Assembly (NCBI GenBank): GCA_964490075.1 | Contig: CAZBBK010000022.1 | Location: 6,168 to 70,167 of the forward strand | Direction: 5' to 3' | Origin: an uncultured Gemmatimonadota bacterium | GTDB lineage: Bacteria > GCA-2686955 | DNA: 64,000 nucleotides | Part shown: positions 30,013 to 52,355 of the stretch, in pieces | How positions within the stretch are numbered: the first letter of the stretch is position 1 | Layout: every line of letters starts with the position of its first letter | Made by a program: the position numbers and the translations under genes | Notes under the pieces: generated by a model | Databases searched by the model: none | Seen by the model: only the letters and a program-made list of their open reading frames with translations | Told to the model about the DNA's origin: nothing

Positions 30013-32217
30013 TCAGCCCTCCACCGCGCCGGGCAGCATGAGCCGGAAGGTCGTTCCGCGCCCCGGCTTCGACTCCGCCCAGATGCGCCCCCCGTGCAGC
30101 TCGACGATGCGGGCGCAGATCGCCAGTCCGATCCCGGTCCCCGGATACTCGTCGACCGGGTGCAGGCGGCGGAAGGGCCGGAAGATCTCGCGCGCGTCGG
30201 CCGGATCCATGCCGATGCCCTTGTCGCGCACCCAGATCTGCCAGAGCTCGCCCTCCCGGCGCGCCCCGATGCGGATCTCGGGCGGCGCGTCGCCGCGGAA
30301 CTTGAGCGCGTTGCCGAGCAGGTTGCGGAACACGCGCGCGAGCTGCACGCCGTCGCCCCGCACCGCCGGCATGGGACCGATGCGCAGCGTCGCCTCGCTC
30401 GCCTCGAGCGCCTCGTGCATCGACTCACCCAGCTCCCGCAGCAGCACGCCGCAATCGACCGGCTCGGCGGGGCGCTGCTCGCTCTGCAAGCGCGAGAGCT
30501 CCAGCATCTTGGTGACCATCTCGCGTATGCGGGCGATTTCGCTCTCGATGAAGCCGAGCCACTCGGCGGCGGTCGGCTCCAGCGACCCGGCCGCGCGCTG
30601 GTGCAGCAGCCCGGCGAAGCGCGAGACGATCGCCAGCGGCTCCATCAGGTCGTGGGCGGCGTCGAAGGCGAACTGCTCCAGCTCGACGTTGGAGCGCGCC
30701 AGCTCGGCGGTGTGGCTGAGCGCCACCTCCTCGGCTTTCTTGCGCGCGGTGATCTCCTCCGCCAGCATGACCGCGCGATCCCAGGCCGGGGGCTCGCCGG
30801 GGGCGCCGACGGTGAGGGCGATGTCGAGTCGGGCACCGCTCGGCATCCGGCCCTGGGTGTCGACCCGCAGCGTTCCCCGGCCCTCGTAGATCGCCAGGCA
30901 GATCGCCCGCATGGCATCCATCCCCTCGCGCGGGATGGCGTTGGGCCAGGTGATGAGCAGGTCGGTTCTGGAGCGCTCGCGGTAGAGCCGCACCGCGGCG
31001 TCGTTGACGTCGCGGATCCGCACCTTGGTGTAGAGCCGCGCCAGCTCCAGGGGATGTTCGAGGAGGTGGCGATCGAGCGCCTGGGAGGTCGCGCAGTCGA
31101 GCTTGTTCAGAGAGGTCTGGACCGCCGAGAGGTCGACGTTCCAGATCGCCACCGGGGCCGACTCGAAGAGGTGGCGGTAGTGGGCCTCGCTCCGCTCGAG
31201 CATGCGCCGCGCCTCATCGCGCTGGTAGCGCAGCACCCGATCGGCGCGCAGATCGCGCACCTCGCCGACGATTCCGAGCACCTCGCCATCGGAATCCTCG
31301 ATGCGGCTCAAGTTGAGCGCCACCGGGATCTGGTCGCCGTTGCGGCAGATCATCCGCGTCTCGACCCCACGCACCGGCTCGCCGCTCAGCGCCCGCTCCA
31401 TCAGAATCTCGGCCTCGGGGCGCAATCCAGGGGGCACCAGGAGATCGAAGAGCGGACGCCCCAGCGCCTCCGACACTGAATAGCCGAAGAGCTTCTCCGC
31501 CTCGGGGTTCCAGAGCTGGATCCGGCCTCCGGGGCTGTAGGCGATCATGGCGTTGGGCGAGCAGCGCAATACGGCTTCGAGATTGGCGCTCAGCTCGCCG
31601 CGCCGGCGCCGGAAGAGCAGGTCGTGGGCGGCCATGAAGACCCGTGAATGATCGGGCGGGTCGCCGCCGGCCGCCACCGTGACGTCGAGCAGGACCGGCG
31701 TGCCGTCGAGCGCCACCAGGGGCGCCTCGACCCGCACCCGGCCGGCGCCGCCGAAGAAGCTCACCAGCACCTCGGCCAGCGGCGGCACGGTGCCCTCGAC
31801 CAGCATGCTCGCCTGGTTGCGCTTGGCCTCCTCGGCGTCGCGCGCCTTCAGCAGGCGCAAGGTCTCGCGAGTGGCGTAGCGCACCTCGATCGCCGCCCCG
31901 AGCTCCAGCACCAGCTCCGGGCGCTCCCGCAGGTGGTCCCAGAGCGCCCCCTCGCTCTCCAGTCCGAGCGCGGCGATGCGCGCCAGGGGTACGCTGAAGT
32001 CGAGCTCGGCCAGCACCGCCGGGGCCAGGTCCCAGAGCGGCGCGCCGCGGCCGAATCCGCGCGCCTCGGCCATCCTCGGGGGGGAGGAGGGGGCCGAGAG
32101 GGCGTCGTCCCCCACCGGCCGGGGGCCCTTCTTCGGGCGCCGCGAGGGTTTCTTGCGCCGCCCCTTCGGCTGCTCGCGCTCGGTCCCCGTCTTGGTGCTC
32201 TGACCTTTTCCGCCCAC
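30013..32217 (-). CDS. Multi-PAS sensor histidine kinase (HisKA)
   Basis: PAS repeats, LEQFAFDAAHDLMEP, NLLGNALKF, DKGIG, GTGIGLAIC, GRGTTF; GTG start with GGAGG RBS. Confidence 0.92.
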   Translation of the reverse strand: MGGKGQSTKTGTEREQPKGRRKKPSRRPKKGPRPVGDDALSAPSSPPRMAEARGFGRGAPLWDLAPAVLAELDFSVPLARIAALGLESEGALWDHLRERPELVLELGAAIEVRYATRETLRLLKARDAEEAKRNQASMLVEGTVPPLAEVLVSFFGGAGRVRVEAPLVALDGTPVLLDVTVAAGGDPPDHSRVFMAAHDLLFRRRRGELSANLEAVLRCSPNAMIAYSPGGRIQLWNPEAEKLFGYSVSEALGRPLFDLLVPPGLRPEAEILMERALSGEPVRGVETRMICRNGDQIPVALNLSRIEDSDGEVLGIVGEVRDLRADRVLRYQRDEARRMLERSEAHYRHLFESAPVAIWNVDLSAVQTSLNKLDCATSQALDRHLLEHPLELARLYTKVRIRDVNDAAVRLYRERSRTDLLITWPNAIPREGMDAMRAICLAIYEGRGTLRVDTQGRMPSGARLDIALTVGAPGEPPAWDRAVMLAEEITARKKAEEVALSHTAELARSNVELEQFAFDAAHDLMEPLAIVSRFAGLLHQRAAGSLEPTAAEWLGFIESEIARIREMVTKMLELSRLQSEQRPAEPVDCGVLLRELGESMHEALEASEATLRIGPMPAVRGDGVQLARVFRNLLGNALKFRGDAPPEIRIGARREGELWQIWVRDKGIGMDPADAREIFRPFRRLHPVDEYPGTGIGLAICARIVELHGGRIWAESKPGRGTTFRLMLPGAVEG

Positions 32218-32427
32218 GTCGCTCCTCCCACGCTGTCGCGACCGTGCTCCCGACTCCTGTCTCGGCGTTCTGCTTCTTTGGGCCGGTTCCTGCTGACCGA
32301 GCGGCAGGCTATCGGAGGCTCTCGGGAGCCGTCAATCAAATCTCGGCAACAGGCCCTCCACATCGATGCGCCCGTGCCGCTCGACGGGCCCACGCCGGGG
32401 TCGGAGGCGGTGCCCTCCCGGCGCCGC

Positions 32428-34055
<1,628 letters not shown>

Positions 34056-34192
34056 CGGGGGGGCTCCGGGGGGCGAGCGGTCGGTCGCCAGAGATGGCGA
34101 CAGTTCCTGCGCTCTCGCTGGTGACACCTACGATTGGATAGTAGTGGACCCTCGACCGGCCGGTAATCAGGAGTTGTCCGGACAAGAGTCTC

Positions 34193-36296: not shown

Positions 36297-37433
36297 CTAG
36301 TCCCAGACAAAAACCTCCACCCGCCGATAGTCCGCCAGCTCGATGCCCTTGCCCACCGGACCGATCGGTCCCAGACCCATGGTGCGCAGGCGGGTCGCGT
36401 CGATGCCCTGGCCGGTCAGGTAGGCGGCGACGCTCTGGGCGCGGTCGCGGCTCAGGTTGATGTTGTACATCTGGCCGGCGCGCGCGTCGGCGTAGCCGGT
36501 GACCAGGGCGTGGCTGCCCTGGTGCTGGCCCATCAGGGTGGCCAGCTCGTCCAGGGTGGCGTTGTCGCTCTCGTCGAGCTCCGCACGCGAGGTCTCGAAA
36601 TAGACCACCTGCTGGTGGCTGAGCCCGCCCCGCTCGCGGCTGGCCCCCGCCAGCGCCGTGCGCAGCTCGTCGAGCTCCTTCTTGGTCTCCCAGGCGATCT
36701 TGGCGTTGGCCTCGGCGATCCGGGTGTCGACCTGGTCCAGCAGCGCCGCCTCGTCGATGCTGCCTTCCATCAGGGCGGTGTAGATCGAGGGGACCGAGCT
36801 GCCGAAGACGTAGCTCAGGCCGACCCGAGCGCCGGCCACACCGTCGCCGAAGCCGCCGGCCTCGATGCCGTCGATGCGGTCGTTGGAAGCCAGCGTGTAG
36901 CCGCTCTGCAGGGTCAGGGCCCAGTGGTCGTCCAGGAAGAAGTCGGTGCCCAGGCCGGCGCGGAAGGAGCCGTAGCCGTCACCGGAGTCGAGGCCGGCGA
37001 AGAGGGTGCCGGTCTCGTCGAGCGAGGAGACCGAGTAGAGGCCGCCGCCGAAGTAGATGAAGGGGCTGATCCGCGAGTCGGGGGCCAGGTTGACCAGGGC
37101 GTCGAGCTCGGCGCCGAAGGTATTTCGACTGAAGTCGGCGGGGTCCTGGGTGGACCGGAAGATGGCGAAATCCTGCTCTCCGGTGGTGTGCTGGAAGCCC
37201 AGGTTCAGCGCCAGGCCCAGGTTGGACGTGAGGCCGTAACGCCCTTGCAGGCCGAGATATAGCTCGTCGCCGCCGAATCCACCGTAGTCGAGGTTGTTCT
37301 GCAGGTCTCCGTGCACCACGCCGCTGCCGAGCTGCAGACCCAGCGCGAAACGGTCGGCCTGGTTGCCGGCCAGGGCGGGGGGCGCCCAGGCGATGCCGAG
37401 GCACAGCGCCCCGAGTGCGATGGCAATTCGCAT
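36297..37433 (-). CDS. OmpA-family outer-membrane protein (beta-barrel plus peptidoglycan-binding domain)
   Basis: Signal peptide; barrel ending RVGLSYVFG; VYFETSRAEL, GYAD...YNINLSRDRA.SV, RRVE. Confidence 0.9.
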   Translation of the reverse strand: MRIAIALGALCLGIAWAPPALAGNQADRFALGLQLGSGVVHGDLQNNLDYGGFGGDELYLGLQGRYGLTSNLGLALNLGFQHTTGEQDFAIFRSTQDPADFSRNTFGAELDALVNLAPDSRISPFIYFGGGLYSVSSLDETGTLFAGLDSGDGYGSFRAGLGTDFFLDDHWALTLQSGYTLASNDRIDGIEAGGFGDGVAGARVGLSYVFGSSVPSIYTALMEGSIDEAALLDQVDTRIAEANAKIAWETKKELDELRTALAGASRERGGLSHQQVVYFETSRAELDESDNATLDELATLMGQHQGSHALVTGYADARAGQMYNINLSRDRAQSVAAYLTGQGIDATRLRTMGLGPIGPVGKGIELADYRRVEVFVWD

Positions 37434-37564
37434 GTGGTCTCTCCTGACTATGTTTGATGACCCCCGATGCCTGTGGCTACTTTCTATTTTAGTCTGAGGT
37501 CACGGGGTTTGGCGTTTCATGTGCCGGATCTGCCGTCCGGCGCCTGGCGCGGGAGGGTCGATCG

Positions 37565-40500
37565 GTGGCCGCGCCGAGCCGAAATCGAGTGCTGGCCGGA
37601 CTGCTGGAGCTGGACCGGGAGGGCGGCGGCGAGGCGTTGCGGCCAGGTGTGGAGCGCGAGCTCGAGTGCCAGGGAGCGGCGCTGGTGCGCGCGGTGGCGG
37701 TCGCGGAATGGCGGGCCGGCGCGCGCACCGAGCGGCTGGCGATCGAGGAGAGGAGGCGCGGGCTGCCGGGACTGGGCGCGGCGCCGGCGCGGGGCGGGGC
37801 GGAGCCGCGGCCGGCGCGACCGAGCGACTCCGAGCTCGCCCGCCGTGCCGACCAGTCGATGCTGCACTGGGAAACCCTGCAGCGCCTGGAGGACGAGATC
37901 TGCGCCGCGGCCTCTCGAGCGCGGGAAGCCGCCGGCCCGCCACCGAGCGGACCGGGCCTGGGCGAGACCTTCGAGGCGCTGCTCGCCGGGGTCGCGCCAG
38001 CCGGCGCGCTCGACCGTGGTGAGGCGGGCGTCCTGGTCGCGTTCGGCCCTCGACTGGTCGAGCGCAAGCCCGCGGGAGCGGAAAGCCTGGCGCGCACACT
38101 CGGCGCCCTCGGCGTCGCCGGCAGCGGCGTTTCGCGGCCCGCCGTGGCGCTCCTGGCCGCCCGCTGCGAGATCCTGCGCGGGCGCGCCGAGCATGCCCTC
38201 CCCACCCTGGACTCTTCGATCGAAGAGCACCCGGGGCGCCGGTGGGCCGCCCATGCGTGGCAGTTGCGGGCGCGGACCTGGCGCGACCTCCGCGGCGCAC
38301 CGCATGCCTTCCAGGCCGCGATCGAGAGCGCGGTGGCGGCCCGGGCGCTGCGCGATCGGCGCCTGGAGGCGGGGGCGATGCTCGATCTCTCCAGTCTGTA
38401 CCGCGATACCGGGCGCCCGGAGGCGGCGCGCGCGCTTTGCGGTGCGGCGCTCGAAAACGCGCGCCGGGTGGGCGCCCGGGAGCTCGAGGGGACCGCGCTC
38501 GGCAACCTGGCCAACGTGAACGCCGATACCGGATCGGTGCTGCGGGCCATGGAGCTCTTCGAGCAGGCGCGGGAGATCTTCCGGCGGCTCGGGGACCGGC
38601 GCCGCGAAGCGATCGCGACCGGCAGCCTCGGCTGTGTGCACTGGATGCTCGGCGATCGCGACCGCACCCGCGCGCTCTTCGAGGCGGCGCTCCGGATCCA
38701 GCGCCAGCAAGGCGACCTGCGGGTCGAAGGCGTCACACTCGACAACCTGGGCCAGCTGCACCGCGAGTGGGGATCCTTCGGCGAGGCACAGCACCTTTTC
38801 GACGCCGCGCTGCGCATCCACCAGCGCCTCGGCAATCGCCAGTCCGAGGGCCGAACGCTCGGCAACCTGGCCAATATGCAGCTCGATGCGGGTGCCGCCG
38901 GACGCGCGCGCGAGCTCTACGAGGCGGCGCTCGCCATCCACCGCGAGGTGGGCGACCGGCCGTGGGAAGGGCGTGCGCTCGCGAACATGGGAACCCTCCA
39001 GGTGTCGACCGGCGACGCCGATCGGGGGCGCGGACTGCTCGAGGCGGCGCTCGAGATCCACCGCGAAGTAGAGGATCGCGCCAGCGAGGGCAAGACGCTG
39101 CAGGACCTGGCCCGCTTCCACGCCGCCGCCGGCCGCCCGGCGCGCGCGCGGGAGCTCTACCGGGCCGCGCTGCGGATCCATCGCCAAGCCCGGGAGCGCT
39201 ATCCGGAGGGCAGATCGCTGGCCGGTCTCGCCCGGGTCGAGCTCGAGCTCGGCGAAACCGCCCCGGCTCTCGAGCATTGCCGCGCCGCCCATGCCATCTT
39301 CAGCGAGCTCGGCGCCCTCGGCGAGCTCCCCGTGGCGCTGCACACGCGGGCCCTGTGCCTGGTCCGAGGGAACGCCCCGAAAGCAGCCATGGAGAGCTTC
39401 CGCGCGGCGCTCCGGGCGCTGGAGCAGTGGCTGCGCGACACCGGCTCCGAGCGCCGGCGGAGCCGCGTCCTCGAAGATGCCTTCCCCTGTCTCTTCGACG
39501 CCGTCGCCCTGTTGCTGCGCGGAAGCGATCCCGGCGCCGAGGCAATCGCCGAAGCCTTCGAGCTGGCCGAGCGCTGCAAGGCCCGGTCGCTGCTCGAGAA
39601 GGTCCGCCGGCCGGCACCGCCGTCCCTCCCTTCGACGCCGATCGCACGCCGCCGCCGCGAGCTCGAGGCGCAGCTGCAGCGAGTGCGGGAGCTCCTGCTC
39701 GAGGAGCGCTCGGGCCCGCGCGCGCGGCGCCAGGTGCTGGAGCATCTCGAATCCGAGCTGGACCGCGCGCGCGCCGAGCACGGCGATCTGCTCGATCGGC
39801 TGGCGCTGCGCCGCCCGGTCTGCGCCGCCGGCGAAGGACTCACCCCGCCCTTGCCCCTGGCCGAGGTGCAGCGGCGCATCGTCGGGGATCGGAGCAGCGC
39901 ACTGCTCGAGTATCTGGTCACGCCCTCCGAGACCTTCCTGTGGGTGATCCGCGCCGACCGAGTGCGGACGGTACGGCTGGGAATGGGCGAAGCGCCGCTG
40001 GCGCGTAGCGTCGATCGGGCACTGCGTCCCTTTGCACGCTTTCGGCAGTCGCGCATCCCGGCGGCGCTCTGCGCGCTCGATCCCGCGCGGCTGCGCCACC
40101 TCGCGCGCCTGGTGCTGGGGCCGGCGCGAGCGCATCTCGAGGGCGTTCGTCGATTGCTGGTGGTCCCTTCCGGTCCGCTGCACGCGCTTCCCTTCGATCT
40201 GCTGGTGCTGCGACTCGCCGGCGAGGGCGGGTGGAAGGGCCGCGCGACCAGCGATCGCTACGCCGCTTCCGAATACCTGGCGGAGCGTTTCGAGGTGGTC
40301 TACGGCCCCTCGGCCACCCTGCTGGACCCCGGGCTGCGAGCCCGCGGCGAGCGCGACGCGCGCGCGAACCCGCCGCCGGCGAGTCCGGCGCAGGCGAGGG
40401 TGCTGGCCTTCGCCGATCCGCTCTGCCGCGCCGCCGGCGCCCCCCCGGAACCGCCCCCGGGCAGCGCCGCGGCGCCGCCCCTCCCTCCCCTGCCCGGCAC

Positions 40501-41125
40501 CCGCGAGGAGCTGCGCGGCATCGAGGAGCTCTTCCCGCGCACCCAGTCGTACTCCGGCTCGCGCGCCCGCGCGGACATCTATCGCCGCCACGCCCCCGAA
40601 GCCGACATCATTCATCTCGGCTGCCACGGCCTGATCGACGCCGATCAACCGAGTCATTCGGCGATGGCGCTGGCGCCGGGCCGGCAACCGCCCGAGGAGG
40701 GCTGTCTGCGGGCCTACCAGATCGCCGAGCTGCACCTGCCCCGCGCACCCCTGGTGGTGCTCTCGGCCTGCGGAAGCGCCGGGGACCGACTCTGCCCGGC
40801 GGAGGGTCCGCTGGGCCTGATCCGCGCTTTCGCCGAGGCCGGCGCGAGCTCGGTGGTGGCCGCCCGCTGGGCCGTCGACGATTCGGTCACGGCGCGGCTG
40901 ATGACCCTCTTCTACCGCGCCCTGGTCGCCGGCCGCGACGATCCCGCCGCGGCGCTGGCCAGCGCCAAACGCGCGATGCTGGCCGCCGCCAGGGGTTCGC
41001 CGCCGCGAGGTCGCGACAGATCGGAGACCGCCCTTCTGTTGCCGCCCGGGCACCCCTACTTCTGGGCCGGCTTCGGGATCTACGGACAGGGAATCTGGTG
41101 TCGCGGTCTGCCCAGTGGGGGATGA
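37565..41125 (+). CDS. TPR-CHAT (caspase/separase-like) protease, 1186 aa
   Basis: Nine 40-aa TPR units (e.g. EGTALGNLANV, EGRTLGNLANM); AFELAERCKARSLL; LLVVPSGPLHALPFDLL; catalytic HLGCHG and VLSACG; PYFWAGF. No signal peptide seen. Confidence 0.92.
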   Translation: MAAPSRNRVLAGLLELDREGGGEALRPGVERELECQGAALVRAVAVAEWRAGARTERLAIEERRRGLPGLGAAPARGGAEPRPARPSDSELARRADQSMLHWETLQRLEDEICAAASRAREAAGPPPSGPGLGETFEALLAGVAPAGALDRGEAGVLVAFGPRLVERKPAGAESLARTLGALGVAGSGVSRPAVALLAARCEILRGRAEHALPTLDSSIEEHPGRRWAAHAWQLRARTWRDLRGAPHAFQAAIESAVAARALRDRRLEAGAMLDLSSLYRDTGRPEAARALCGAALENARRVGARELEGTALGNLANVNADTGSVLRAMELFEQAREIFRRLGDRRREAIATGSLGCVHWMLGDRDRTRALFEAALRIQRQQGDLRVEGVTLDNLGQLHREWGSFGEAQHLFDAALRIHQRLGNRQSEGRTLGNLANMQLDAGAAGRARELYEAALAIHREVGDRPWEGRALANMGTLQVSTGDADRGRGLLEAALEIHREVEDRASEGKTLQDLARFHAAAGRPARARELYRAALRIHRQARERYPEGRSLAGLARVELELGETAPALEHCRAAHAIFSELGALGELPVALHTRALCLVRGNAPKAAMESFRAALRALEQWLRDTGSERRRSRVLEDAFPCLFDAVALLLRGSDPGAEAIAEAFELAERCKARSLLEKVRRPAPPSLPSTPIARRRRELEAQLQRVRELLLEERSGPRARRQVLEHLESELDRARAEHGDLLDRLALRRPVCAAGEGLTPPLPLAEVQRRIVGDRSSALLEYLVTPSETFLWVIRADRVRTVRLGMGEAPLARSVDRALRPFARFRQSRIPAALCALDPARLRHLARLVLGPARAHLEGVRRLLVVPSGPLHALPFDLLVLRLAGEGGWKGRATSDRYAASEYLAERFEVVYGPSATLLDPGLRARGERDARANPPPASPAQARVLAFADPLCRAAGAPPEPPPGSAAAPPLPPLPGTREELRGIEELFPRTQSYSGSRARADIYRRHAPEADIIHLGCHGLIDADQPSHSAMALAPGRQPPEEGCLRAYQIAELHLPRAPLVVLSACGSAGDRLCPAEGPLGLIRAFAEAGASSVVAARWAVDDSVTARLMTLFYRALVAGRDDPAAALASAKRAMLAAARGSPPRGRDRSETALLLPPGHPYFWAGFGIYGQGIWCRGLPSGG

Positions 41126-41199
41126 CCTGGATACACAACACGTCCGTGGTGGGTTATCGGTGGGATATGAGCAACGGTCACCCAAGGCGAGGAGCACCG

Positions 41200-41745
41200 A
41201 TGGACGACGAAACCGGCTCGCTCTTGACTCGCTACTCCTGCGAGGTGCTGCGCGGCGCCGAGCTGGAGCGCGCCGAAGAGCTGATCGTGCGGTCGCACGC
41301 GGCGCGCGAGTACGTGGAGGAGATGGACGACACGTTCGAGCTGATGGGCCGTGGGGACCTCCGCCTGCTGCGCGCCGTCGCGGGACCGAAGCAGACACTT
41401 CCGGTGCGGCTCGGCCGGCTGCTGGTCCGGGCGCGCGAGCTCCTGGCTCGCGAGCTGGGGCTGGAGCCGCGCGGCAAGGACGGACGCTGGTTCGACGCCG
41501 TGCCCGAGCTCTGGACCCTGATGCAGGCGGAGGCGGTCACGCGCGGCGATTCGTCGAGCGGCGGGCCGGTGCCCCCGCACCGCCGCTGGCTCAGCGCGAT
41601 GCACTGCCTGGAGAAGGGCGATCCGCGGCTGGCGCTGCTGCACTTCGCGGCGATTCAGAAGGCGCGCGGAGAGCTGTCGCGCGACGCCAACGCGATGCGC
41701 GGCGAGATCGAGGCCCATTTGCGCGAGGTGGCCGGCGATGAGTGA
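41200..41745 (+). CDS. Anti-sigma-like protein (degenerate zf-HC2-like N-terminus, TPR-like C-terminus)
   Basis: GSLLTRYSCEVLRGAELERAEELIVRSHAAREYVEE follows zinc-finger anti-sigma spacing but lacks the H/CxxC ligands; GAGGAG RBS; overlaps the ECF gene. Alternative start 41167. Confidence 0.5.
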   Translation: MDDETGSLLTRYSCEVLRGAELERAEELIVRSHAAREYVEEMDDTFELMGRGDLRLLRAVAGPKQTLPVRLGRLLVRARELLARELGLEPRGKDGRWFDAVPELWTLMQAEAVTRGDSSSGGPVPPHRRWLSAMHCLEKGDPRLALLHFAAIQKARGELSRDANAMRGEIEAHLREVAGDE

Positions 41746-42316
41746 GCCGCATCCCGCGTTCGAGAGTGGCGACCGGCACCCCGCGCCGCCCCACCTCGCG
41801 ACCTGGAACGAGATGGGCGACAGCGAGTGGAACGACCTGCTGCGGCGCGCCCAGGCCGGACGAAAGCACGCCGCGGACGAGCTGCTGGCGCTGCTGCGGA
41901 TCGGTCTCTTGCGCGTGGCGCAGGGTCGGCTCTGGAACGGTGCGGCGGCGGAGGCGGAGGACGTGGTGCAGGAGACGCTGCTGGCGGTCTATGGGAAGCT
42001 CCGCGGCATCCACGACCGCCCCTACGCCTACGCGCTCGCCGTGCTGCGCAGGAAGATCGCCGACGCGCTGCGGCAAAGAAAGCCCGGCGCGGCACCATCC
42101 CCAGAAGCGCGCCCCAGCCCGCCCCCCGACCCGGAGCTCAGGCGCCGCCTGGAGCGCGCGCTGCGCTCTCTGCCGGCGACGTGTCGCGAGCTGCTGCTGC
42201 TGCTGGCCCGCGGCTACGACAATTCCGATCTCTACACGATGTTCCCGGAGCTGGAGCCCGGCACCATCCGAGTCCGCATCAAGCGTTGCCGGGATCGGTT
42301 GCGGGTCGAGCTCTGA
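41738..42316 (+). CDS. ECF sigma-70 factor
   Basis: Region 2 EAEDVVQETLLAV; region 4 LRSLPATCRELLLL...GTIRVRIKRCRDRL. Confidence 0.88.
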   Translation: MSEPHPAFESGDRHPAPPHLATWNEMGDSEWNDLLRRAQAGRKHAADELLALLRIGLLRVAQGRLWNGAAAEAEDVVQETLLAVYGKLRGIHDRPYAYALAVLRRKIADALRQRKPGAAPSPEARPSPPPDPELRRRLERALRSLPATCRELLLLLARGYDNSDLYTMFPELEPGTIRVRIKRCRDRLRVEL

Positions 42317-42363
42317 GCGCGGCTCGTTCCGGCTTTGGTGCTCCCGAGGGTCGGAATAGATCC

Positions 42364-42383
42364 AACCGCAGAGGCCTCAGAGG
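42364..42383 (+). repeat. 20-bp sequence with a perfect inverted copy at 43590-43609
   Basis: AACCGCAGAGGCCTCAGAGG versus CCTCTGAGGCCTCTGCGGTT. Confidence 0.8.
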
Positions 42384-42439
42384 GCCAGGTCAACGCGGAC
42401 TTTCGGGCGCGTAGCATCAGGGCCGGAATCCGGTAATGA

Positions 42440-42685
42440 CTCGCGACTCCGATCGAGGAGTTGGAGGTTGCGGCAAGATTCTGGTCACCACTCACCACTC
42501 TCGATCGAGAGTCGCGAGGTACGACGCGAATACGGTCGTGGCTCTGGGTTCATCGCGATGAGCGGCGAGTTGTGGCGGATATACGGTCGTGGCTCCGCAC
42601 TCTCGATCGAGAGTGGTGAGTTGTGTCGCGAAAAGGCGTCATGACTCGCGGTTCCGGGCGCGGAGCTGGGCTTTGTGTCGGGGCC
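42440..42685. repeat. Tandem array of four degenerate 51-bp units plus a conserved tail
   Basis: Units start at 42440, 42491, 42542 and 42593, each with a central palindrome (CTCTCGATCGAGAG or TCATCGCGATGA); tail GCGGAGCTGGGCTTTGTGTCGGGG. Confidence 0.85.
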
Positions 42686-42700
42686 GGTGGCGAGCGTCCT

Positions 42701-42880
42701 GTCTACGTGGCTCCGGGGACCCAAGAAGCCGCGGTCGCCCATGTGGAGCTGCTCGTGGAGCGGCTTCGCGTGGTGAATCGCCAGCTCCGGAAGTGTCACC
42801 ACTGATCGGTGATCCAGCTCCGCGCTTCGCACCAGGAGCTCTGCCCGGTCTCTGGCTCAGGAGCCGTGACCAAGCTCACC
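42701..42880 (+). pseudogene. Possible IS110-family transposase remnant
   Basis: VYVAPGTQEAAVAHVELLVERLRVVNRQLRKC and SGSGAVTKL resemble IS110 linker and C-terminal segments as recalled from memory; stop codons and no catalytic domain. Confidence 0.4.
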
Positions 42881-42962
42881 GCGGCGATTGCTCTGACACC
42901 GTTGAAGCCGGCGCGGGGATCGTGGAGCCTCGCGTGGGCTGGATGGAAGGGGGCGCGTTCCA

Positions 42963-43138
42963 CCATAATCCGCTACCTGATTCGCGATTCGCCATGCGCC
43001 TCCTGGCCTTGTCCTTCGATGCTCGCACCGATTTGATGCTCAACGTAGCTCCACTACGCCTGCGCTCGAATCGGCCCGGCGCCTCGACCAAGGCCAGGAG
43101 GCGCACGGCTCGGTCACGAATCAGGTGGCGGATTATGG
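42963..43138. mobile_element. MITE-like element, copy 2 (176 bp)
   Basis: TIRs CCATAATCCGCTACCTGATTCG / CGAATCAGGTGGCGGATTATGG; 5-bp flanking duplication TTCCA (42958-42962, 43139-43143); internal sequence homologous to copy 1. Confidence 0.88.
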
Positions 43139-43549
43139 TTCCAGGCAGCGAGCTGCCCTGGAGAGCGGGAGGACGCCGCGCCGGTCGAGAATGCCTGGGC
43201 GGTGTTGGCGACCGGGCTTGCGGAGCCGCAGCTTGCGCCGCGATTCCCTGCGGAAGCAGCGATGCTCTCGAGTCCCTCATCCTTCGAGCCGTTGATTGCG
43301 TTCCCCCCCCGGTCCACGACCGTCGATCGGCGCAAGACGATAGCTCCCAGGTGGCGTCCGGGGTCACAGCCCCGGAGCTTTTCATTGCCAAATGGTGAGG
43401 AGTCCCTGCCCGATTCGGGCAACGGAGTCGGGCAAGTGCCTGGGCTTGGGCAGAGGCACGATTCGTCATGATCCGGGCGCTCCCTGCGCGGAGAGCCGCT
43501 ATATCGAAACGCCAGTCGGCCCTTTCCCGCTCCACAACCCAGAACCCCT

Positions 43550-43609
43550 CAGCGCTCTCTGCGTCCTCTGAGGCCTCCTGGCCTCTTGGCCTCTGAGGCC
43601 TCTGCGGTT
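43550..43609. repeat. Short-period (8-9 bp) CTCTG-type tandem repeat ending in CTCTGCGGTT
   Basis: CTCTGCGTC CTCTGAGGC CTCCTGGC CTCTTGGC CTCTGAGGC CTCTGCGGTT. Confidence 0.7.
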
Positions 43610-43780
43610 CATCCTCCGCTGGTCGACAGGACCAGCGAAGTAAGGCCGTGCACAGAATTGCGTAGCGAGACGGCGCTGCCGCGCGCTGGGTCGGGTAAGC
43701 GGGCGCCGCCCGCGCGGGGCGGGCGGCGCGATCGACTCGGACGATTGCGTCTCGTCCGGTGCCTCGGGGGCGGGCGAGGG

Positions 43781-44083
43781 CTACTCGCTGGTTTCGATTC
43801 GGTGGAGCAGCAGGGGCTGTCCGGCCATGCAGACGTCCATTCCCCTATACACCTCGGCCCAGACCCGCACGCGGTCGCCGACCGCGTAGCCGGGGGCGTC
43901 GTCGCACGGGAAGGCGTACTCCACGCCGATGTCGGACACCAGCGCGAAGCAGTCCTCGATCTCGTAGACCAGCTCGCCGCGGGTCATGATGCCGACGCGC
44001 GGCTCGTCCAGGATCGAGCAGTCCGCCAGGGCCGGTGTGGCCGCCAGGATCATCGTGCCAAGAAACACCTTGAGGGCATTCAT
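43781..44083 (-). CDS. Small secreted hypothetical protein (100 aa, four Cys)
   Basis: AAGGAG RBS; signal peptide MNALKVFLGTMILAATPALA; YAVGDRVRV suggests an OB-like strand. Confidence 0.75.
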   Translation of the reverse strand: MNALKVFLGTMILAATPALADCSILDEPRVGIMTRGELVYEIEDCFALVSDIGVEYAFPCDDAPGYAVGDRVRVWAEVYRGMDVCMAGQPLLLHRIETSE

Positions 44084-44423
44084 GGCCACTCCTTTCTCTA
44101 CTGGGTGTGTGGTCACGGCAAGGGACGCGCGCCTCGAGCGCGTCGCCGTGTCGACCATGCACCCTCCCAATCGGTGCGGAAGGGCGCTCCGTTACAGCCC
44201 TCTGGCTAAGTGTCGGTGGCTTCCCGGAGCCCTCGCAGCAGGCGGCGAAGGCGCCGCTTGTTGCGAATCGGGCCAAGGACCTTGCCGGCAAACGAACTCG
44301 GGCGGCAACGCGGCGAAGTGTCGTTGTTTGCTGCGATCGAGGGCGCTCGACCGCCCCGCGCCAGGTCGGGCGGCGCGCCGCTAAAGCGCTACTCTGCCAT
44401 GAGTTATACGAACCGACTCAGTT

Positions 44424-44439
44424 CGGCACGAAGCCTGCT
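44424..44439 (+). promoter_or_regulatory. Sigma54-like promoter upstream of secreted paralogue A
   Basis: CGGCACGAAGCCTGCT (GG-N10-GC), near-identical to the motif at 48131; 259 bp before the ATG. Confidence 0.55.
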
Positions 44440-44682
44440 GTTGCCACGCCGAAACGATTCGAGTCGATCCGCGACGGCGCGGCTCGACACTCAATACAGC
44501 GGGCTTCGACCGGCGCTGATCCGGCAACGAACCAACCTCGGCGGTGGCACACCGCTGCGTCGATCCACGGCGGGACGGCTGGGGGAATCGATGCGCATCG
44601 GTTCGACCCTAAAGGTGTCGGCTCGAAGCCCGCAAGACTCAGCGATCGTCTCCAACGAGGGGGCGATCGAAGGAACTACCAA

Positions 44683-45768
44683 ATGCAGATGTCAAAGGCA
44701 TTTTTTGCGGCGGCTTCGGTCGCGCTCTTCGCGGGCGCTGGGTTCGCGGATGAGACGGTGATCGACAAGGGAACCAGTACCACCGAGTACCTCCTTGGCA
44801 CCGAGCAGACGCCGCTCAAGATCAATCCGTCGAGGATCTGGTACAACACCAGCCACGTGACCATGGGCGTGGGCATGCGCAACCAGCACGCCAACGGCGG
44901 CGCGCTGAGCGGCTGCCCGCTCGACGTGGTCGGGCCCGACGCGGTCAAGGCGGTCATCTTCCACTGGTCCTACACTGGGGTCGACAAGGCGGCCCCGCCG
45001 GCCGATCTCGACCTGATCCAGGTCCGGCGATTCACCCCCGCGCAGTACGCGCAGCGGGATGTCTACGGCGAGCGGATCGGCGTCAGCGAAGAGAACTGCT
45101 GGGAGATCAACTCCAACGCCGAAGTCTACCGGGCGATCGTCGAGCCGGGTGACGCGCTCTTCACGCAGCTCGGTTTCGATGTGGCTGGGAACGGCACCTT
45201 CGGTTTCGTGCTTCCGGCCGGAACCACCGCGATTCACGATCACCGCCACCCCTGGCAGGCCTTCGGATACCTGGACGATCGCGCGGCCTTCGACGGCGTC
45301 TCGATGACGGTCGTCTACAAGTCCGACGAGGATCCCCGAGGCATGGGCGAGACCCTGCTCTTCGACAAGGAGCAAGGCGCCGGCTACGCACTCGCCGCGG
45401 ACCTGTTCAACATCTCCGCGGACTACCAGCTGCAGAACCTCAGCTTCACCGAAGACAAGTACTCGAAGCTCAGCTTCGTGTCGTTCGGCGGGCAGATCGA
45501 TCGTGAAAGCGGTTGGTACGCGCAGAACGCGTTCAGCTCTGAGCTCACCCAGCTCTTCATCGACAACAAGGTCAATGGCAACTCTAGCTCGCTCGACGCG
45601 CTTGGCAAGAGCCTGTACGAAGGCGAGCAGGGCAACACCTCGCCACAGCTGATGGACGCCCGCAGCTTCGAGATGTTGGCTGCGCTGACCGGCTCCGACC
45701 TGTTGGTCGAGGTCAGGGGCGATCAGGACTGCATCATCCCCGGTGCCGTCATCGTCACGCAGCGGTAG
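44683..45768 (+). CDS. Secreted uncharacterised protein, paralogue A
   Basis: Signal peptide; WYNTSH..GVGMRNQ, HWSYTG, NCWE..VYRAI, FDGVSMTVVY, SPQLMDAR, GDQDCIIPGAV; AAGGAA RBS. Confidence 0.85.
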   Translation: MQMSKAFFAAASVALFAGAGFADETVIDKGTSTTEYLLGTEQTPLKINPSRIWYNTSHVTMGVGMRNQHANGGALSGCPLDVVGPDAVKAVIFHWSYTGVDKAAPPADLDLIQVRRFTPAQYAQRDVYGERIGVSEENCWEINSNAEVYRAIVEPGDALFTQLGFDVAGNGTFGFVLPAGTTAIHDHRHPWQAFGYLDDRAAFDGVSMTVVYKSDEDPRGMGETLLFDKEQGAGYALAADLFNISADYQLQNLSFTEDKYSKLSFVSFGGQIDRESGWYAQNAFSSELTQLFIDNKVNGNSSSLDALGKSLYEGEQGNTSPQLMDARSFEMLAALTGSDLLVEVRGDQDCIIPGAVIVTQR

Positions 45769-45889
45769 CTGCACGGCGGACTGGATAGCTGGAGCAACAG
45801 CGCCGGCTGCTGGTGGCATGCCCCGAGGCGGTCTCGGCCGAACGACCGAGGCCGCCTGCCACCAGCAGCTCGCGCTCTTGTGCGTACGA

Positions 45890-47137
45890 TCAATCCTCGA
45901 AGGGGTAGGCGTCGACCCGCCCGTAGCCGAAATCGTAGGCGTCACCCAGAGGGTCGGCATTCTCCTGGAGATGAGCGCGGATCTGCCCGTTGTTCCAGGG
46001 CGTGAGGCTGACGTAGCCGGCTCCGATCCCCGCTGTCAAGGGACAGGCAAAGGAAGTACCCGACCAGTAGTTGTAGTTGAAGGTCGGATTCGTCGAGTAG
46101 ATGTGCTCCCCCGGAGCCACGATCTCCACGTTGCCCTCCACCTCGTGGTCGCCGAAGCCTCGACTGGAATACCAGGCGATCTCGGTGCACCCCAGGTCCA
46201 ACGCGCCCACACCGATGACCGATGTGAAGGTCGCCGGGTAGTTGCTCCGGTCGTTTCTCCCGTTACCCGCCGCGGCAAAGACCGACACCCCAGCAGAGCG
46301 GGCATCCTCGCAAGCGCGCTCCAGGGTGGCGTCGTGTCCGCCTCCCAGAGACATGCTGATTACCTGGGCACCGAGTCCCACCGCGTAGTCGATTCCAGCG
46401 GCCACATCGGACCAGGAGCCGAAGCCGTGCTCGTCGAGCACCTTGATCGGCAAGACCGACGCGTTCACCACCCCGGCAATCCCGATCCCATTGTCCGTCA
46501 CGGCCGAAGCAACCGCCGCACACGCCGTCCCGTGCCCATAATCGTCCATCGGATCGGCGTCATCGTTCACGAAGTCCCAGCCGTTCTCCGTGTCGACGTT
46601 GCCGATCAGATCTTCGTGGTTGTAGTCCACGCCGGTGTCGAGGATCGCGATCGTCACGCTCCTCTTCTCGAACCCAAAGCGCCCCCAAGCCCGCTCCAGG
46701 TCGACGCAAGCCGGCGCCCATTGCCGGTGGTAGTACTCATCGTTGGGCACCACACTCTCCCCCAGCTCCCGGGCCATCCCCCCCTCGGAGAACTGCGCCA
46801 TCCACTCCTCATCCTCAGGAATGCGCGCCACACCATCCAGCTCCACGTAGTCCACCAGCGAACGAAGCGCGGCATCCGCCACGAGCCATTCCACATCGCT
46901 CGGCGCCACCTCGATGGTCATGGCCCGGATTCGCCCGAGCCGCCGTACCAGGCCCGCGCCGTGGTTCTCGCGCACAAGCGCCAGGGCGTCGTCCAGATCC
47001 AGATTACTGGCGGCGCCGATGTTGATCCGCACCAGCTCGGAGCGGTCGTCGACCGCCGCACCGGTGCTCCGTGTCTCGCCCGCGGCCTCCAACGCGGCGA
47101 ATCCTGCTACTACTAGAAAGAGAATAGTCCTCGTCAT
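45890..47137 (-). CDS. Secreted S8 subtilase (intact paralogue of the split gene)
   Basis: Signal peptide; IAILDTG, GHGTACA, AAGN, GTSFACP; ATG at 47137. Confidence 0.93.
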   Translation of the reverse strand: MTRTILFLVVAGFAALEAAGETRSTGAAVDDRSELVRINIGAASNLDLDDALALVRENHGAGLVRRLGRIRAMTIEVAPSDVEWLVADAALRSLVDYVELDGVARIPEDEEWMAQFSEGGMARELGESVVPNDEYYHRQWAPACVDLERAWGRFGFEKRSVTIAILDTGVDYNHEDLIGNVDTENGWDFVNDDADPMDDYGHGTACAAVASAVTDNGIGIAGVVNASVLPIKVLDEHGFGSWSDVAAGIDYAVGLGAQVISMSLGGGHDATLERACEDARSAGVSVFAAAGNGRNDRSNYPATFTSVIGVGALDLGCTEIAWYSSRGFGDHEVEGNVEIVAPGEHIYSTNPTFNYNYWSGTSFACPLTAGIGAGYVSLTPWNNGQIRAHLQENADPLGDAYDFGYGRVDAYPFED

Positions 47138-47694
47138 GTTTCGTTCCTGGTGAGCCTGATGCTCCTGCTTCACCCTGGGGCGAACGCTGGTGTCGGGCAC
47201 CGCGCGTCCGGTGTTCCCCTGACATTCAATCAGTACTTTTTCGATCGACCCGTCAAGCGAAGCCTTCAGCGTCATATTTTTCGCGGGATCGCGAGGAATA
47301 GCGGATATCCTCGCGTCGCGTGGCATGCTCTTCATGAATCTGTCGCTCCGAAGGGCGATTGCCCGGGCGACATCCGAAGGATCAGAGCTGCAGGTCCTCC
47401 GAAGAAACATCGGCTCGCCACGATATCGCCCTCGTTTCGCCGGCCTCGGCGACTGAAATGCACCGGTTGCGCACTTCCGCGCAGTCGGCTCGGGGCATGA
47501 GATCGCACCCCGCGGCGCATTCGCCAATTGTGGCGATCTCCGGCAAGTCCCTTGCGCGACAAGGGAAAGGGCATATCGCGGCGGCATTTTTCGCTCCTTG
47601 CTGCGACCAAGCGCGGCCCAGGCTGCTGTCCCTATCCCGCTCTGAACGCCGCAAAGTGCAGAGCGGCCGTCACTTGGGGAAGCTCCGTCCGGGC

Positions 47695-47710
47695 CGGCAC
47701 GCAGGCTGCG
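47695..47710 (+). promoter_or_regulatory. Sigma54-like promoter of the vestigial gene start
   Basis: CGGCACGCAGGCTGCG (GG-N10-GC), 104 bp before ATG 47799. Confidence 0.55.
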
Positions 47711-47798
47711 AGAGGTGTCCCGATCTCGGGAGAACGGGTCCTACCACCTCCCCAATCAGCCGCACCGAACACTCGGTGCGAATCGCAAGGCACGGACG

Positions 47799-47895
47799 AT
47801 GCGCAAGGCGATCGCTCCTCTGGCGCCGGCGGCGACCACGCTGCTGGCTCAGTACGCAAGCGCGGACGAAGATGTCACGGTCGTCGACCGGGCGC
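47799..47895 (+). pseudogene. Vestigial 5' end of a fourth paralogue (signal peptide only)
   Basis: MRKAIAPLAPAATTLLAQYASADEDVTVVDR versus MRKAIAPLALAATALLAGNAIAGRVSVVDY at 48235; similarity then stops. Confidence 0.75.
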
Positions 47896-48130
47896 CATCA
47901 AGCAGGAGCTGTGATGAAGTCCGCGGTGGAGAAAGGGCGTCGCACGCCCCGGCGAATTCGCCGATTGTTGCGAGCTCCGGCCAGGGCGCTGTGGGGCAAG
48001 GGGATCGATGCTTCTCGCCGCCATTCCTCGCTATTTGTTGCGATCAGTCTCCAGCCTCGGCTCCGCCGCCGCGCCCGCCCTGGTGGCGGAAGCGATTGGA
48101 TTTCAACGAATTGGAAGAATGCGCCGAGAT

Positions 48131-48146
48131 CGGCACGATGCCTGCG
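48131..48146 (+). promoter_or_regulatory. Sigma54-like promoter upstream of paralogue B
   Basis: CGGCACGATGCCTGCG (GG-N10-GC), 104 bp before ATG 48235. Confidence 0.62.
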
Positions 48147-48234
48147 TTGGGTGCCCACGCGCGAAAAGTCTCGGACAGACCGACGCTCGAGGCGCGGATT
48201 TCGTCCGCGAGGCACGGATCGAAAGGAACACACG

Positions 48235-49260
48235 ATGCGCAAAGCAATCGCTCCGCTGGCGCTGGCGGCCACCGCGCTGCTGGCCGGAAACGCCATTGCG
48301 GGGAGGGTCAGTGTGGTCGACTATGGCACCAGCCCGACCGCATATGTCCAGAACGATCTGGACATCTTCCCCTACCCCACCGTCTGGTACAACACCACCC
48401 ACGTCACCAACGCCGTGGGCATTCGCAACCGGCGCGGCGGCGGCATCGAGCTCAACGGCGCGCCGGACGATGTGCGCGGCGCCGAAGCGGTGATCATGCA
48501 CTGGTCCTTCACCGGCATCGACGATCCGGATCAGCCGGGCCTCGACAAAATGTGGATCAGCCGCATGGAGCCGCCCTACACCAAGGTGCTGATCGATGGC
48601 ACGATCGTCGGCGAGAGCCATGTCAACTGCTGGGAGATCCGCTCCCGGGCACGGGTCTACCGGGCGATTCTGAGCCCCGACGAGATGGAAGCGCTCAAGT
48701 TCGACGTCAAGGTGAGCGGCTCCTTCGCGGTCTGGACCGTGTACGGAACCACCCCGCTGACCCAGGGGCGCGATCCCTGGCTCCGCGAAGGCTACGACGA
48801 CGATCTCTCCGCGGTCGACGGCGTGGCGCTGACGGCGATCTACCGCTCCGACCGGGAGCCGATGGGTGCGACCTTCCTCTACGACGAAGAGCACGGCTCG
48901 GGTCGGGCGCTGGCCGGCAAGCTCTTCAACCTGGAGGCCAGCTACACTCTTCATGGGCTGAATGTCGCCGGAATCGACGATTCGAAGTTCAGCTTCCTCT
49001 CCTTCGGCGGGCAGGATCGCAAGGCCGGGCTGACCCAGGGCATGGGCGAAGTGACGCGCCTCAACGGCAACTTCGCGCAGGGCAACTCGGCGCTGGCGCA
49101 GCGCCTCTTCGACGGCGCCCAAGGCTCCTGGTCGCCGCAGCTGATCGACGCCCGCTCCTTCACCCAAGAGCTGAGCGCGGGCACCTCCGACGTGCTCGTC
49201 GAGATCGCGGGCGACCGTGACTGCATCGTGCCGGGCGCGGTCGTGGTGACTGCAAGGTAA
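48235..49260 (+). CDS. Secreted uncharacterised protein, paralogue B
   Basis: Signal peptide; WYNTTH..AVGIRNR, HWSFTG, NCWE..VYRAI, VDGVALTAIY, SPQLIDAR, GDRDCIVPGAV; AAGGAA RBS. Confidence 0.87.
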   Translation: MRKAIAPLALAATALLAGNAIAGRVSVVDYGTSPTAYVQNDLDIFPYPTVWYNTTHVTNAVGIRNRRGGGIELNGAPDDVRGAEAVIMHWSFTGIDDPDQPGLDKMWISRMEPPYTKVLIDGTIVGESHVNCWEIRSRARVYRAILSPDEMEALKFDVKVSGSFAVWTVYGTTPLTQGRDPWLREGYDDDLSAVDGVALTAIYRSDREPMGATFLYDEEHGSGRALAGKLFNLEASYTLHGLNVAGIDDSKFSFLSFGGQDRKAGLTQGMGEVTRLNGNFAQGNSALAQRLFDGAQGSWSPQLIDARSFTQELSAGTSDVLVEIAGDRDCIVPGAVVVTAR

Positions 49261-49289
49261 AGAGTGGTGCCAACGGGCATGGACAATAA

Positions 49290-52348: not shown

Positions 52349-52355
52349 AAGCACG

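Follow-up and report, generated by a model that had tools for sequence, protein, structure and literature searches.

The 64-kb stretch of DNA analysed here (hereafter the window, whose coordinates are used throughout) has a G+C content of about 70% and carries, between positions 37565 and 42316 of its + strand, three genes encoding in this order a TPR-CHAT protease, a small protein and a sigma factor of the extracytoplasmic function (ECF) type. From the letters of the sequence, an original prediction had read this triad as a protease-gated transcription switch that works outside any CRISPR locus. All three genes are present, at 37565-41125 (1186 aa), 41200-41745 (181 aa) and 41738-42316 (192 aa). 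The first two are separated by a 74-bp gap, and the last two overlap by 8 bp, the ATG of the sigma gene lying over the TGA of the small gene (ATGAGTGA, 41738-41745, + strand), so that the predicted overlap is real and points to translational coupling. No terminator-like site was found between the three genes; the first one on the + strand, at 42649-42668, lies 3' of the sigma gene. The protease gene starts with GTG, 8 nt after a GGGAGG ribosome-binding site situated in the divergent intergenic region (37434-37564) that separates it from an ompA-like gene transcribed in the opposite direction (36297-37433, - strand). This region is presumed to hold the operon promoter; no sigma-70-type consensus promoter was found for the operon, and the promoter is placed there by inference. 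The small gene starts with ATG and has an AGGAG ribosome-binding site at 41190-41194.

At such a G+C content, long spurious open reading frames (ORFs) are frequent in the window. The G+C contents at the first, second and third codon positions were 0.81, 0.57 and 0.87 for the protease gene, and 0.77, 0.48 and 0.91 for the small gene, which is a clean coding signature. A 1293-aa antisense ORF covering the protease gene (37517-41398) was rejected as a high-GC artefact, having a third-position G+C content of 0.78 and a nonsense translation rich in Arg, Ala and Gly. The same triad is also found on six public metagenomic contigs of the same organism (JGI 3300009128, ENA SUTE22 samples and Logan), where it was called by independent pipelines, and the source of the operon is a marine bacterium, probably one of the Gemmatimonadota. 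The 181-aa protein, which has no known relatives over its full length (see below), is thus a real gene product, on the strength of both its third-position G+C content and these independent calls.

The first gene product was predicted to be a cytoplasmic TPR-CHAT protein with an intact His-Cys dyad, and this description holds in full. The CHAT domain (PF12770) is matched with E=1.7e-55 over residues 842-1174, that is over profile positions 3-288 of 289, and TPR_12 with E=3.2e-41, together with several other TPR families (Pfam). From N- to C-terminus, the protein consists of a helical region (about residues 1-245), a TPR array (about 246-650), a helical linker and the CHAT domain. The N-terminal helical region of about 245 residues is shared by six full-length relatives (36-45% identity), which formed our close alignment; a broader alignment contained 27 sequences. 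The catalytic His1021 (motif HLGCHG, codon 40625-40627, + strand) is invariant in the six close relatives and nearly so in the 27, and Cys1069 (motif VVLSACGS, codon 40769-40771, + strand) is invariant in both sets. Neither a signal peptide nor a segment of transmembrane grade was detected in the protein, whose maximum Kyte-Doolittle mean over 19 residues (1.64) falls inside the CHAT core. An AlphaFold2 model built with the 27-sequence alignment was of good quality (predicted local distance difference test score, pLDDT, 81; predicted TM-score 0.79), and the top Foldseek matches of this model were human and yeast separase (E about 5e-14), Myxococcus DdvA (8rot_A, E=1.5e-12) and Csx29 (8eey_B and 7y84_C, target-normalised TM-scores of 0.51-0.57), all with a Foldseek probability of 1.00. 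By sequence alone, relatives in the PDB were recovered for the TPR part only. Because the dyad is invariant and the structural matches go to separase, DdvA and Csx29, the protein belongs to the separase/craspase/DdvA class of TPR-CHAT proteins, with an intact active site.

The third gene product is, as predicted, an ECF (group IV) sigma factor, of a divergent kind and made of sigma2 and sigma4-like regions only. The sigma2 region (residues 57-115, 41906-42082, + strand) is matched by Sigma70_r2 (Pfam, E=1.9e-9) and is followed by a sigma4-like region (residues about 126-192, 42113-42313, + strand). TIGR02937 (sigma70-ECF) matches the protein end to end, over model positions 2-165 of 165, with a score of 41.3 bits for a cutoff of 42.9, and the ECF sigma structure 9isn_F matches residues 33-190 with E=7.2e-7. 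The N-terminal extension is short, about 30 aa, with no obvious pro-sequence. No homologue was returned at E<=1e-5 from an indexed database of 5.8 billion proteins, a threshold that was probably too strict; the sole recognisable relative is the sigma factor of a related locus, L015, described below (phmmer E=2e-7; blastp E=3e-7 over sigma2).

As to the small protein encoded between them, we propose that it is an all-helical, cytoplasmic anti-sigma factor or adaptor, composed of a variable N-terminal half (residues 1-113) and a conserved TPR-like C-terminal tail (residues 124-176, PHRRWLSAMHCLEKGD..., 41569-41727, + strand), the latter being common to the small proteins of paralogous CHAT-sigma loci. 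No signal peptide or segment of transmembrane grade was found in the small protein or in the sigma factor. The single-sequence AlphaFold2 model of the small protein shows eight helices and a non-helical stretch at residues 115-125, and is indicative only, its pLDDT being 42. Between the N-terminal helices and the tail lies the linker TRGDSSSGG (residues 114-122, 41539-41565, + strand), a speculative cleavage region that the original prediction had put forward for its Arg residue. Among six related small proteins, an Arg opening a linker rich in Ser, Gly, Ala or Pro forms an invariant column (LRGG, ARAG, FRDE, LRGN), and at the equivalent junction of domains the window protein reads VTRGDSSSGG. 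The residue preceding the cut varies among CHAT proteases, being Arg for separase and Met or Leu for Csx29 (PMC11506125), and the AEAVTR of the window linker does not fit the separase site (S/D/E)xExxR. We consider TRG no more than a reasonable guess for the cleavage site.

Independence from CRISPR, as it had been predicted, holds across the 64 kb: no Rfam CRISPR-DR match and no CRISPR-like repeats were found, and no Cas7-11 (gRAMP) gene is present in the window, where no coding ORF exceeds the protease gene in length. Searches with Pfam and PADLOC likewise returned no SAVED or CARF domain, no cyclase and no cas gene at the locus. Apart from a generic TPR match, PADLOC detected no defence-system signature, and the operon is devoid of toxin-like genes.

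We then asked how far the association of the three genes extends to relatives of the protease. The five closest relatives in protein databases and four loci from genome collections together define, with the window, six independent locus types. All named close loci come from metagenome-assembled genomes (MAGs) of Gemmatimonadota, except L017, a short contig binned as Planctomycetota. A metagenome scan with the close-family alignment returned distant TPR-CHAT proteins only, and no new close loci. Besides the window, where the order is protease, small gene and sigma, a second type (L015/L016), from the same metagenomes as the window, has the protease followed by a gene for a 228-aa protein and then by the sigma gene. 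In the third type (L013/L014, with the orthologues L019, of the MAG ARS67, and L018), a beta-helix gene, the sigma gene and the small gene follow one another in this order of transcription, divergently from the protease gene. In the fourth (L020, also in ARS67), the protease is followed by a secreted lamin-tail-domain (LTD) protein, the sigma factor and the small protein, the last two genes overlapping by 4 bp. The fifth type (L011/L012) consists of three tandem CHAT genes, then a convergent sigma-small operon and a second copy of the small gene, and the sixth (L007-L010) of two tandem CHAT genes. In the contigs carrying these last two types (ENA ERZ247946xx), the two or three paralogous TPR-CHAT genes of the arrays encode proteins of 1207-1333 aa and are accompanied by repeated small genes, coding for signal-peptide proteins of 130-171 aa (copies 74-82% identical) and for proteins of 151 and 202 aa, with large beta-helix genes close by.

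A sigma factor and a small helical protein were thus found beside the CHAT gene in five of the six locus types. The original prediction had counted a lack of co-conservation as evidence that would speak against it; at the level of the module, the genes are co-conserved. The anti-sigma-first gene order that it had pointed out as unusual is seen in the window and in L015, and the paralogous loci keep the usual order with sigma first. At L015, the 228-aa protein contains a zf-HC2 anti-sigma domain (Pfam, E=2.5e-5, above cutoff, motif FERHLLECAECIEAV), and the sigma gene that follows it (12273-12797, at the same relative position in L016) had been missed by public callers; it overlaps the stop of the zf-HC2 gene by 4 bp (TTGA). 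We consider it highly probable that the three window genes form a functional module.

Such linkage might nevertheless have a more ordinary cause, with the sigma factor and the small protein being a sigma/anti-sigma pair that responds to another cue, for instance redox or envelope stress, and the CHAT gene merely being co-transcribed with them or being a target of the sigma factor. Conserved neighbours of ECF genes can indeed be targets rather than regulators (PMC7826278), and the order and orientation of the genes relative to CHAT vary among the loci (same strand, divergent, convergent). On the other hand, the linkage survives these rearrangements and the extreme divergence of the sigma factors and small proteins, in five of six family loci and across several phyla, the tail of the small protein follows the CHAT family rather than the sigma factor, and in DdvA both functions are physically fused. 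We find this explanation quite improbable, and favour a module in which protease, small protein and sigma factor act together.

Further indications on how the module may be organised came from comparing its parts among loci. The CHAT proteins of the close loci stay 36-45% identical, while their sigma factors fall into mutually unrecognisable clusters. The six small proteins of the other loci have in common a TPR-like tail at the C-terminus (W-x2-A-x3-L-x2-G...; Pfam TPR_19 down to 2.8e-8, pairwise E down to 7.5e-9), while their N-terminal halves show no mutual similarity except between orthologues (z<1.7). Since CHAT proteins and tails are conserved while sigma factors and heads have diverged, the probable partner of the conserved tail is CHAT, and that of the variable head the sigma factor, as far as sequence conservation can tell. 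When a profile of the six proteins was compared with the window small protein by hhalign, a match confined to residues 124-176 was obtained with E=0.002 and a probability of 14%; an earlier profile made from four relatives had given E=0.057. In permutation tests, the window tail (residues 120-181) scored z=5.7 against the tail of the zf-HC2 (ZAS) protein L015_228 (0/500 shuffles), z=3.8 against L020_176 (3/500) and z=3.4 against L019_181 (3/500), and two unrelated middle proteins used as negative controls gave z of about -1.2. For the N-terminal 70 residues, the comparison with the N-termini of the ZAS protein and the other neighbouring small proteins was not significant (z<1.7). The window small protein is thus probably related to the others, and by its tail only.

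From these observations we propose the following mechanism. The operon would encode a free-standing cytoplasmic switch, in which the ECF sigma factor would have the small protein as its cognate inhibitor, and the 8-bp start/stop overlap would keep the output of the small gene in step with that of sigma. The variable N-terminal helices would hold the sigma factor and the conserved TPR-like tail would dock on the TPR-CHAT protein, a cysteine protease of the separase/craspase type that would remain at rest until a protein or ligand cue reaches its TPR array or its N-terminal region. This cue would activate the His1021/Cys1069 site, and the protease would then cleave the small protein, the probable place of the cut being its flexible linker (around residues 114-125). 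Once the fragments are cleared, the sigma factor would be released to direct the expression of its target genes, for which the adjacent secreted-protein genes are the most plausible candidates. Of the readings considered here this one is the best supported; taken from end to end, the chain of events is tentative, and possible rather than probable.

The conserved tail can also be accommodated by a partner switch without proteolysis, in which the TPR-CHAT protein would, upon a signal, sequester the small protein through its tail and so act as an anti-anti-sigma factor, the protease cutting other substrates (for instance as a cell-death or defence effector) and the sigma factor being a parallel arm. 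TPR arrays bind proteins, and the tail itself is TPR-like; CHAT and caspase-like proteases of conflict systems often have broad or different substrates, as is the case of PCaspase; and the CHAT family has expanded into paralogues and tandem arrays, as sensor and effector families often do. However, the dyad is strictly conserved together with the linkage to sigma, which argues that catalysis matters to the module, and the characterised relatives that touch sigma pathways all act, or are proposed to act, by cleavage. The lack of a PADLOC defence signature beyond the generic TPR match, and of a toxin-like gene in the operon, also speaks against this reading. We regard this partner switch as decidedly unlikely, and retain cleavage of the small protein as the preferred mode of release.

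Several results weigh against the proposed switch, most of them concerning the small protein. It returned itself alone from an indexed search of 5.8 billion proteins and from an exhaustive phmmer search of 1.84 billion cluster representatives, and it has no sequence match in Pfam, NCBIfam, PADLOC or the PDB, so that it is neither a Csx30 nor a recognisable anti-sigma factor; against PDB chains nothing was found at E<0.4, although the PDB covers Csx30 (8eey). No zf-HC2 or RsrA-like domain (H-x3-C-x2-C) was detected in it with Pfam or NCBIfam, and the zinc ligands are absent. Its structural model was too poor for a fold search and was set aside, which leaves no usable structure, and it is connected to the other small proteins through some 55 residues of its tail. 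As a statistical signal, the Arg-linker motif was rejected, the pattern being present in 44-68% of shuffled sequences. At the loci themselves, no sigma factor was found within the fetched flanks of L007-L010, and in both L015 and L016, two independent samples, the sigma2 half of the sigma gene is intact and a shift to the +1 frame sets the sigma4.2-like end (NAVYQRVHRSLKRFRAEL) apart from it, so that this copy may be frameshifted and decaying. Finally, upstream of the operon and of ten neighbouring genes, a search for a shared bipartite promoter of the ECF type returned nothing above shuffle level, and a single isolated GGAAC-N-CGTT; the regulon is thus a guess.

The zinc-less anti-sigma-like spacing that had been read in the small protein is therefore not borne out as a sequence feature, its N-terminal half resembling no known anti-sigma domain. 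For the anti-sigma role itself, no such domain was detected, and the support is indirect only: the L015 counterpart combines a zf-HC2 domain with a similar tail, and the small gene adjoins the sigma gene and is translationally coupled with it, as are class I anti-sigma factors. On balance, we lean slightly towards the small protein being an inhibitor of the sigma factor.

If it is not, CHAT might act on the sigma factor itself, either by degrading it, as proposed for ECF54, or by processing it, and the small protein would then regulate the protease, in the manner of securin or PCi. PCaspase cleaves both PCc-sigma and PCi, the closest folds to the window protease are separases, which are under the control of the small inhibitor securin, and such a role would agree with the lack of a recognisable anti-sigma domain and with the fact that the small proteins are conserved in their tail, which co-varies with CHAT and not with sigma. 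The syntenic small protein of L015 has, however, a curated zf-HC2 anti-sigma domain, and classical anti-sigma factors are present at other CHAT-sigma loci (see below). Translational coupling of the small gene with sigma is, in addition, a hallmark of sigma/anti-sigma pairs, and the N-terminal extension of the window sigma, of only about 30 aa, offers no obvious pro-sequence to be processed. Direct action on sigma is rather unlikely in our view, and inhibition of sigma by the small protein remains the reading we prefer.

How does this module compare with known protease-sigma systems? In the type III-E Craspase module, which comprises Cas7-11, Csx29 (a TPR-CHAT protein), Csx30, Csx31 and CASP-sigma/RpoE, Csx29 cleaves Csx30 and thereby relieves the ECF-like CASP-sigma (PMC10028731). 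As in the window, a cytoplasmic TPR-CHAT protein is encoded beside a small protein and an ECF-like sigma factor, and Csx30 is a two-domain inhibitor. In contrast to Craspase, the window has no Cas7-11, no CRISPR RNA and no CRISPR array in its 64 kb, so that activation cannot be RNA-guided, and it has no Csx31. Its TPR-CHAT protein exceeds Csx29 by some 450 residues and has an N-terminal region of its own in addition to a long TPR array, and its small protein is unrelated in sequence to Csx30. The original prediction drew its parallel with type III-E; DdvA-DdvS and the genomic context of ECF54 are nearer precedents than that system on its own.

DdvA is a single polypeptide that spans the membrane by a transmembrane helix; its zinc-binding anti-sigma domain is cytoplasmic, and its TPR-CHAT part is periplasmic and dimeric (PMC11506125). 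RseP is needed for its intramembrane cleavage, and the system controls a CBASS/CRISPR defence island (PMC11506125). Both systems couple a TPR-CHAT protein of the separase/craspase fold, with its His-Cys dyad, to an ECF sigma factor and an anti-sigma function, and share a proposed logic in which signal-induced cleavage of a flexible linker by CHAT frees sigma. Unlike DdvA, the window encodes three separate soluble cytoplasmic proteins without any transmembrane segment, its small protein has no zinc motif or zf-HC2 domain, and no defence genes were seen nearby. The likeness to the CRISPR-linked (type III-B) circuits CalpL-CalpT-CalpS and SAVED-CHAT/PCaspase/PCc-sigma/PCi, in which PCaspase cleaves PCc-sigma and the inhibitor PCi, would by analogy be that of a soluble protease acting on the partner of an ECF-like sigma or on sigma itself. 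Those circuits differ in being activated by cyclic oligoadenylate through SAVED and tied to Cas10 signalling, and CalpL is of the Lon type, not a CHAT protease. The separase-securin pair, finally, provides the best structural matches, and has the same succession of a long helical-repeat region and a caspase-like domain, with separase controlled by its small partner; beyond the fold, no sequence-level kinship was seen, and the biological role of separase is wholly different.

The ECF54 context is that of an ECF sigma factor with conserved CHAT, subtilase and carboxypeptidase-like neighbours in Actinobacteria, for which proteolytic control was proposed from synteny, with no experimental characterisation (PMC8999054, PMC7826278). 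It shares with the window a stand-alone, apparently cytoplasmic TPR-CHAT protein associated with an ECF sigma and no CRISPR link. Of the neighbours typical of ECF54, CHAT is adjacent in the window; an S8 subtilase gene (45890-47335, - strand; Pfam) stands 3.6 kb downstream in the reverse orientation, and a 131-aa CarboxypepD_reg-like protein is encoded 7.2 kb downstream (49551-49946; weak Pfam match, 24.5 bits, below the cutoff of 32.3). The two contexts also differ: the middle protein of the window is helical with a TPR-like tail, instead of having a CarboxypepD_reg-like C-terminus, and the window order is CHAT, small gene and sigma, where the ECF54 context has sigma first. When scored with a profile of three ECF54-context sigma factors, used as a surrogate for the ECF54 group hidden Markov models, the window sigma obtained 22.6 bits, against 51.9 bits for E. 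coli RpoE, and by this comparison is not detectably part of the ECF54-context clade.

To place the module in a wider frame, we examined 31 distant TPR-CHAT loci, 23-34% identical, obtained from genome and metagenome scans. An ECF sigma gene was present in the fetched flanks of 8 of them, with differing layouts and in several phyla. ECFs average about 10 per genome (PMC7826278), from which we estimate, with no computed control, that an ECF gene would lie next to CHAT by chance in a few percent of cases. In four of these loci, L026 (Pseudonocardia nigra), L028 (Phycisphaeraceae), L030 (Caldilineaceae) and L041, the layout of sigma, a protein of about 210 aa, a cytoplasmic TPR-CHAT protein and a secreted S8 subtilase matches the ECF54 context of the literature. 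The proteins of about 210 aa (L026 6994-7668, L028 2506-3126, L030 8921-9586, L041 6244-6891) are soluble, with an N-terminus resembling an anti-sigma helix (e.g. LLDWVEERLPADEAARV; HLDVDCETC in L041) and a weak CarboxypepD_reg C-terminus; Pfam does not call zf-HC2 in them. These proteins may be soluble anti-sigma factors, cryptic ones since no putative anti-sigma is given for ECF54 and ECF58 in the classification paper (PMC7826278). The window small protein showed no kinship to the ECF54-context middle proteins (hhalign E=0.64, z about -1), and no relationship was found between these and the ZAS protein of L015.

Bona fide zf-HC2 anti-sigma factors occur at three other distant loci, L032, L034 and L046. 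In L034 (5558-9562) and L046 (4802-9382), an ECF sigma is followed by a membrane zf-HC2 anti-sigma and a separate TPR-CHAT protein with a lipoprotein-like N-terminus, an arrangement that amounts to a split DdvA, and in L032 (215-4813) a TPR-CHAT protein with a signal peptide or transmembrane segment is followed by sigma and a membrane zf-HC2 protein. The ensemble suggests that the partnership between CHAT and anti-sigma exists in fused, split-periplasmic and fully cytoplasmic forms. We found no description or test, in the literature examined, of a free-standing cytoplasmic TPR-CHAT protein with a separate soluble anti-sigma-like protein, and Casas-Pastor et al. 2021 make no mention of CHAT in their main text. 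It was therefore fair to predict that the linkage between CHAT and ECF had been noted computationally and that this form of it was uncharacterised: the ECF54 context is known, and we found no paper on the form present here. The window module falls outside the Craspase, DdvA and, as far as testable, ECF54 families, but most likely works like them.

Downstream of the operon, a candidate regulon of signal-peptide secreted proteins extends from 43781 to 53459. It includes three paralogous genes coding for proteins of about 340-367 aa, without Pfam match (44683-45768, 48235-49260 and 52356-53459, + strand), with signal peptides that are clear in the first two at least; the genes for the S8 subtilase, the CarboxypepD_reg-like protein and a beta-helix protein (50645-52348; Pfam) are interleaved with them. 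Because genes for beta-helix and S8 proteins are met repeatedly next to related CHAT-sigma loci, these secreted hydrolase- and adhesin-like proteins are the most plausible candidates for the regulon of the sigma factor, judging from gene content.

The 1.46 kb or so that follow the sigma gene (42317-43780) contain no convincing coding ORF and no Rfam match, and include the first copy of a repeat of about 209 bp, present twice in direct orientation (42484-42692, + strand, and 54470-54678; 77-80% identity). In each copy, a 51-bp unit with the core GAGTYGTGACGCGAATACGGKCGTRRCTC is repeated in tandem about 2.5 times, and a 14-bp palindrome (CTCTCGATCGAGAG) is present along with a terminator-like hairpin, which in the first copy is the hairpin at 42649-42668 already mentioned and the probable 3' boundary of the transcription unit. 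The two copies flank a 12-kb stretch of lower G+C content (0.64-0.67, against 0.70-0.75) that carries the secreted-protein genes, and the 51-bp core was found nowhere else in the window. This pair could delimit an inserted island; it could also be a regulatory element that occurs twice, or an element similar to miniature inverted-repeat transposable elements. As an ECF promoter, the core was discarded, its candidate -35 and -10 boxes being about 11 nt apart and the core being confined to the two copies. An ORF at 42589-43398 was likewise discarded as a paralogue of the gene following the second copy, no similarity being found. Close to that second copy, an ORF at 53384-54466 (- strand) starts 4 bp from the repeat. 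Its first 69 residues align with the CheR methyltransferase domain over the final third of the profile alone (positions 131-191 of 195), and it resembles a gene of the CheR family that lost its 5' part to whatever event introduced the repeat. Upstream of the operon, a cluster of PAS/GAF sensor histidine kinases (27002-34127, - strand; 920, 734 and about 500 aa), to which public calls add a short response-regulator gene, is followed by a 609-aa protein without Pfam match and then by the OmpA-like outer-membrane protein.

Freeing an ECF-like sigma factor through a protease is an output recently recognised in type III CRISPR systems (Craspase, CalpL, SAVED-CHAT) and in the myxobacterial defence regulator DdvA-DdvS. 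In all cases studied, the protease either answers to a CRISPR complex or is part of a fusion with a membrane anti-sigma factor. A soluble, CRISPR-free version made of three proteins reduces the matter to its essentials: which cue switches on a TPR-CHAT protease that stands alone? Its three genes make a compact test system, for which clear catalytic and linker mutants can be designed, and may give experimental access to sigma groups of the ECF54 type. That the tail follows the protease and the head follows the sigma factor is a testable design rule which, if true, could make such modules useful as orthogonal protease-controlled transcription switches. In a broader and speculative view, unlikely as it stands, these proteins would form a lineage-specific family, rich in paralogues, of cytoplasmic TPR-CHAT receptor-proteases, each wired to a fast-evolving sigma factor through a bipartite adaptor, and would constitute a CRISPR-independent array for environment sensing or of an innate-immune kind, functionally analogous to NLRs. 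The free-standing state would then be ancestral to the DdvA and Craspase forms, and would also reveal a cryptic soluble anti-sigma factor in ECF54 and ECF58.

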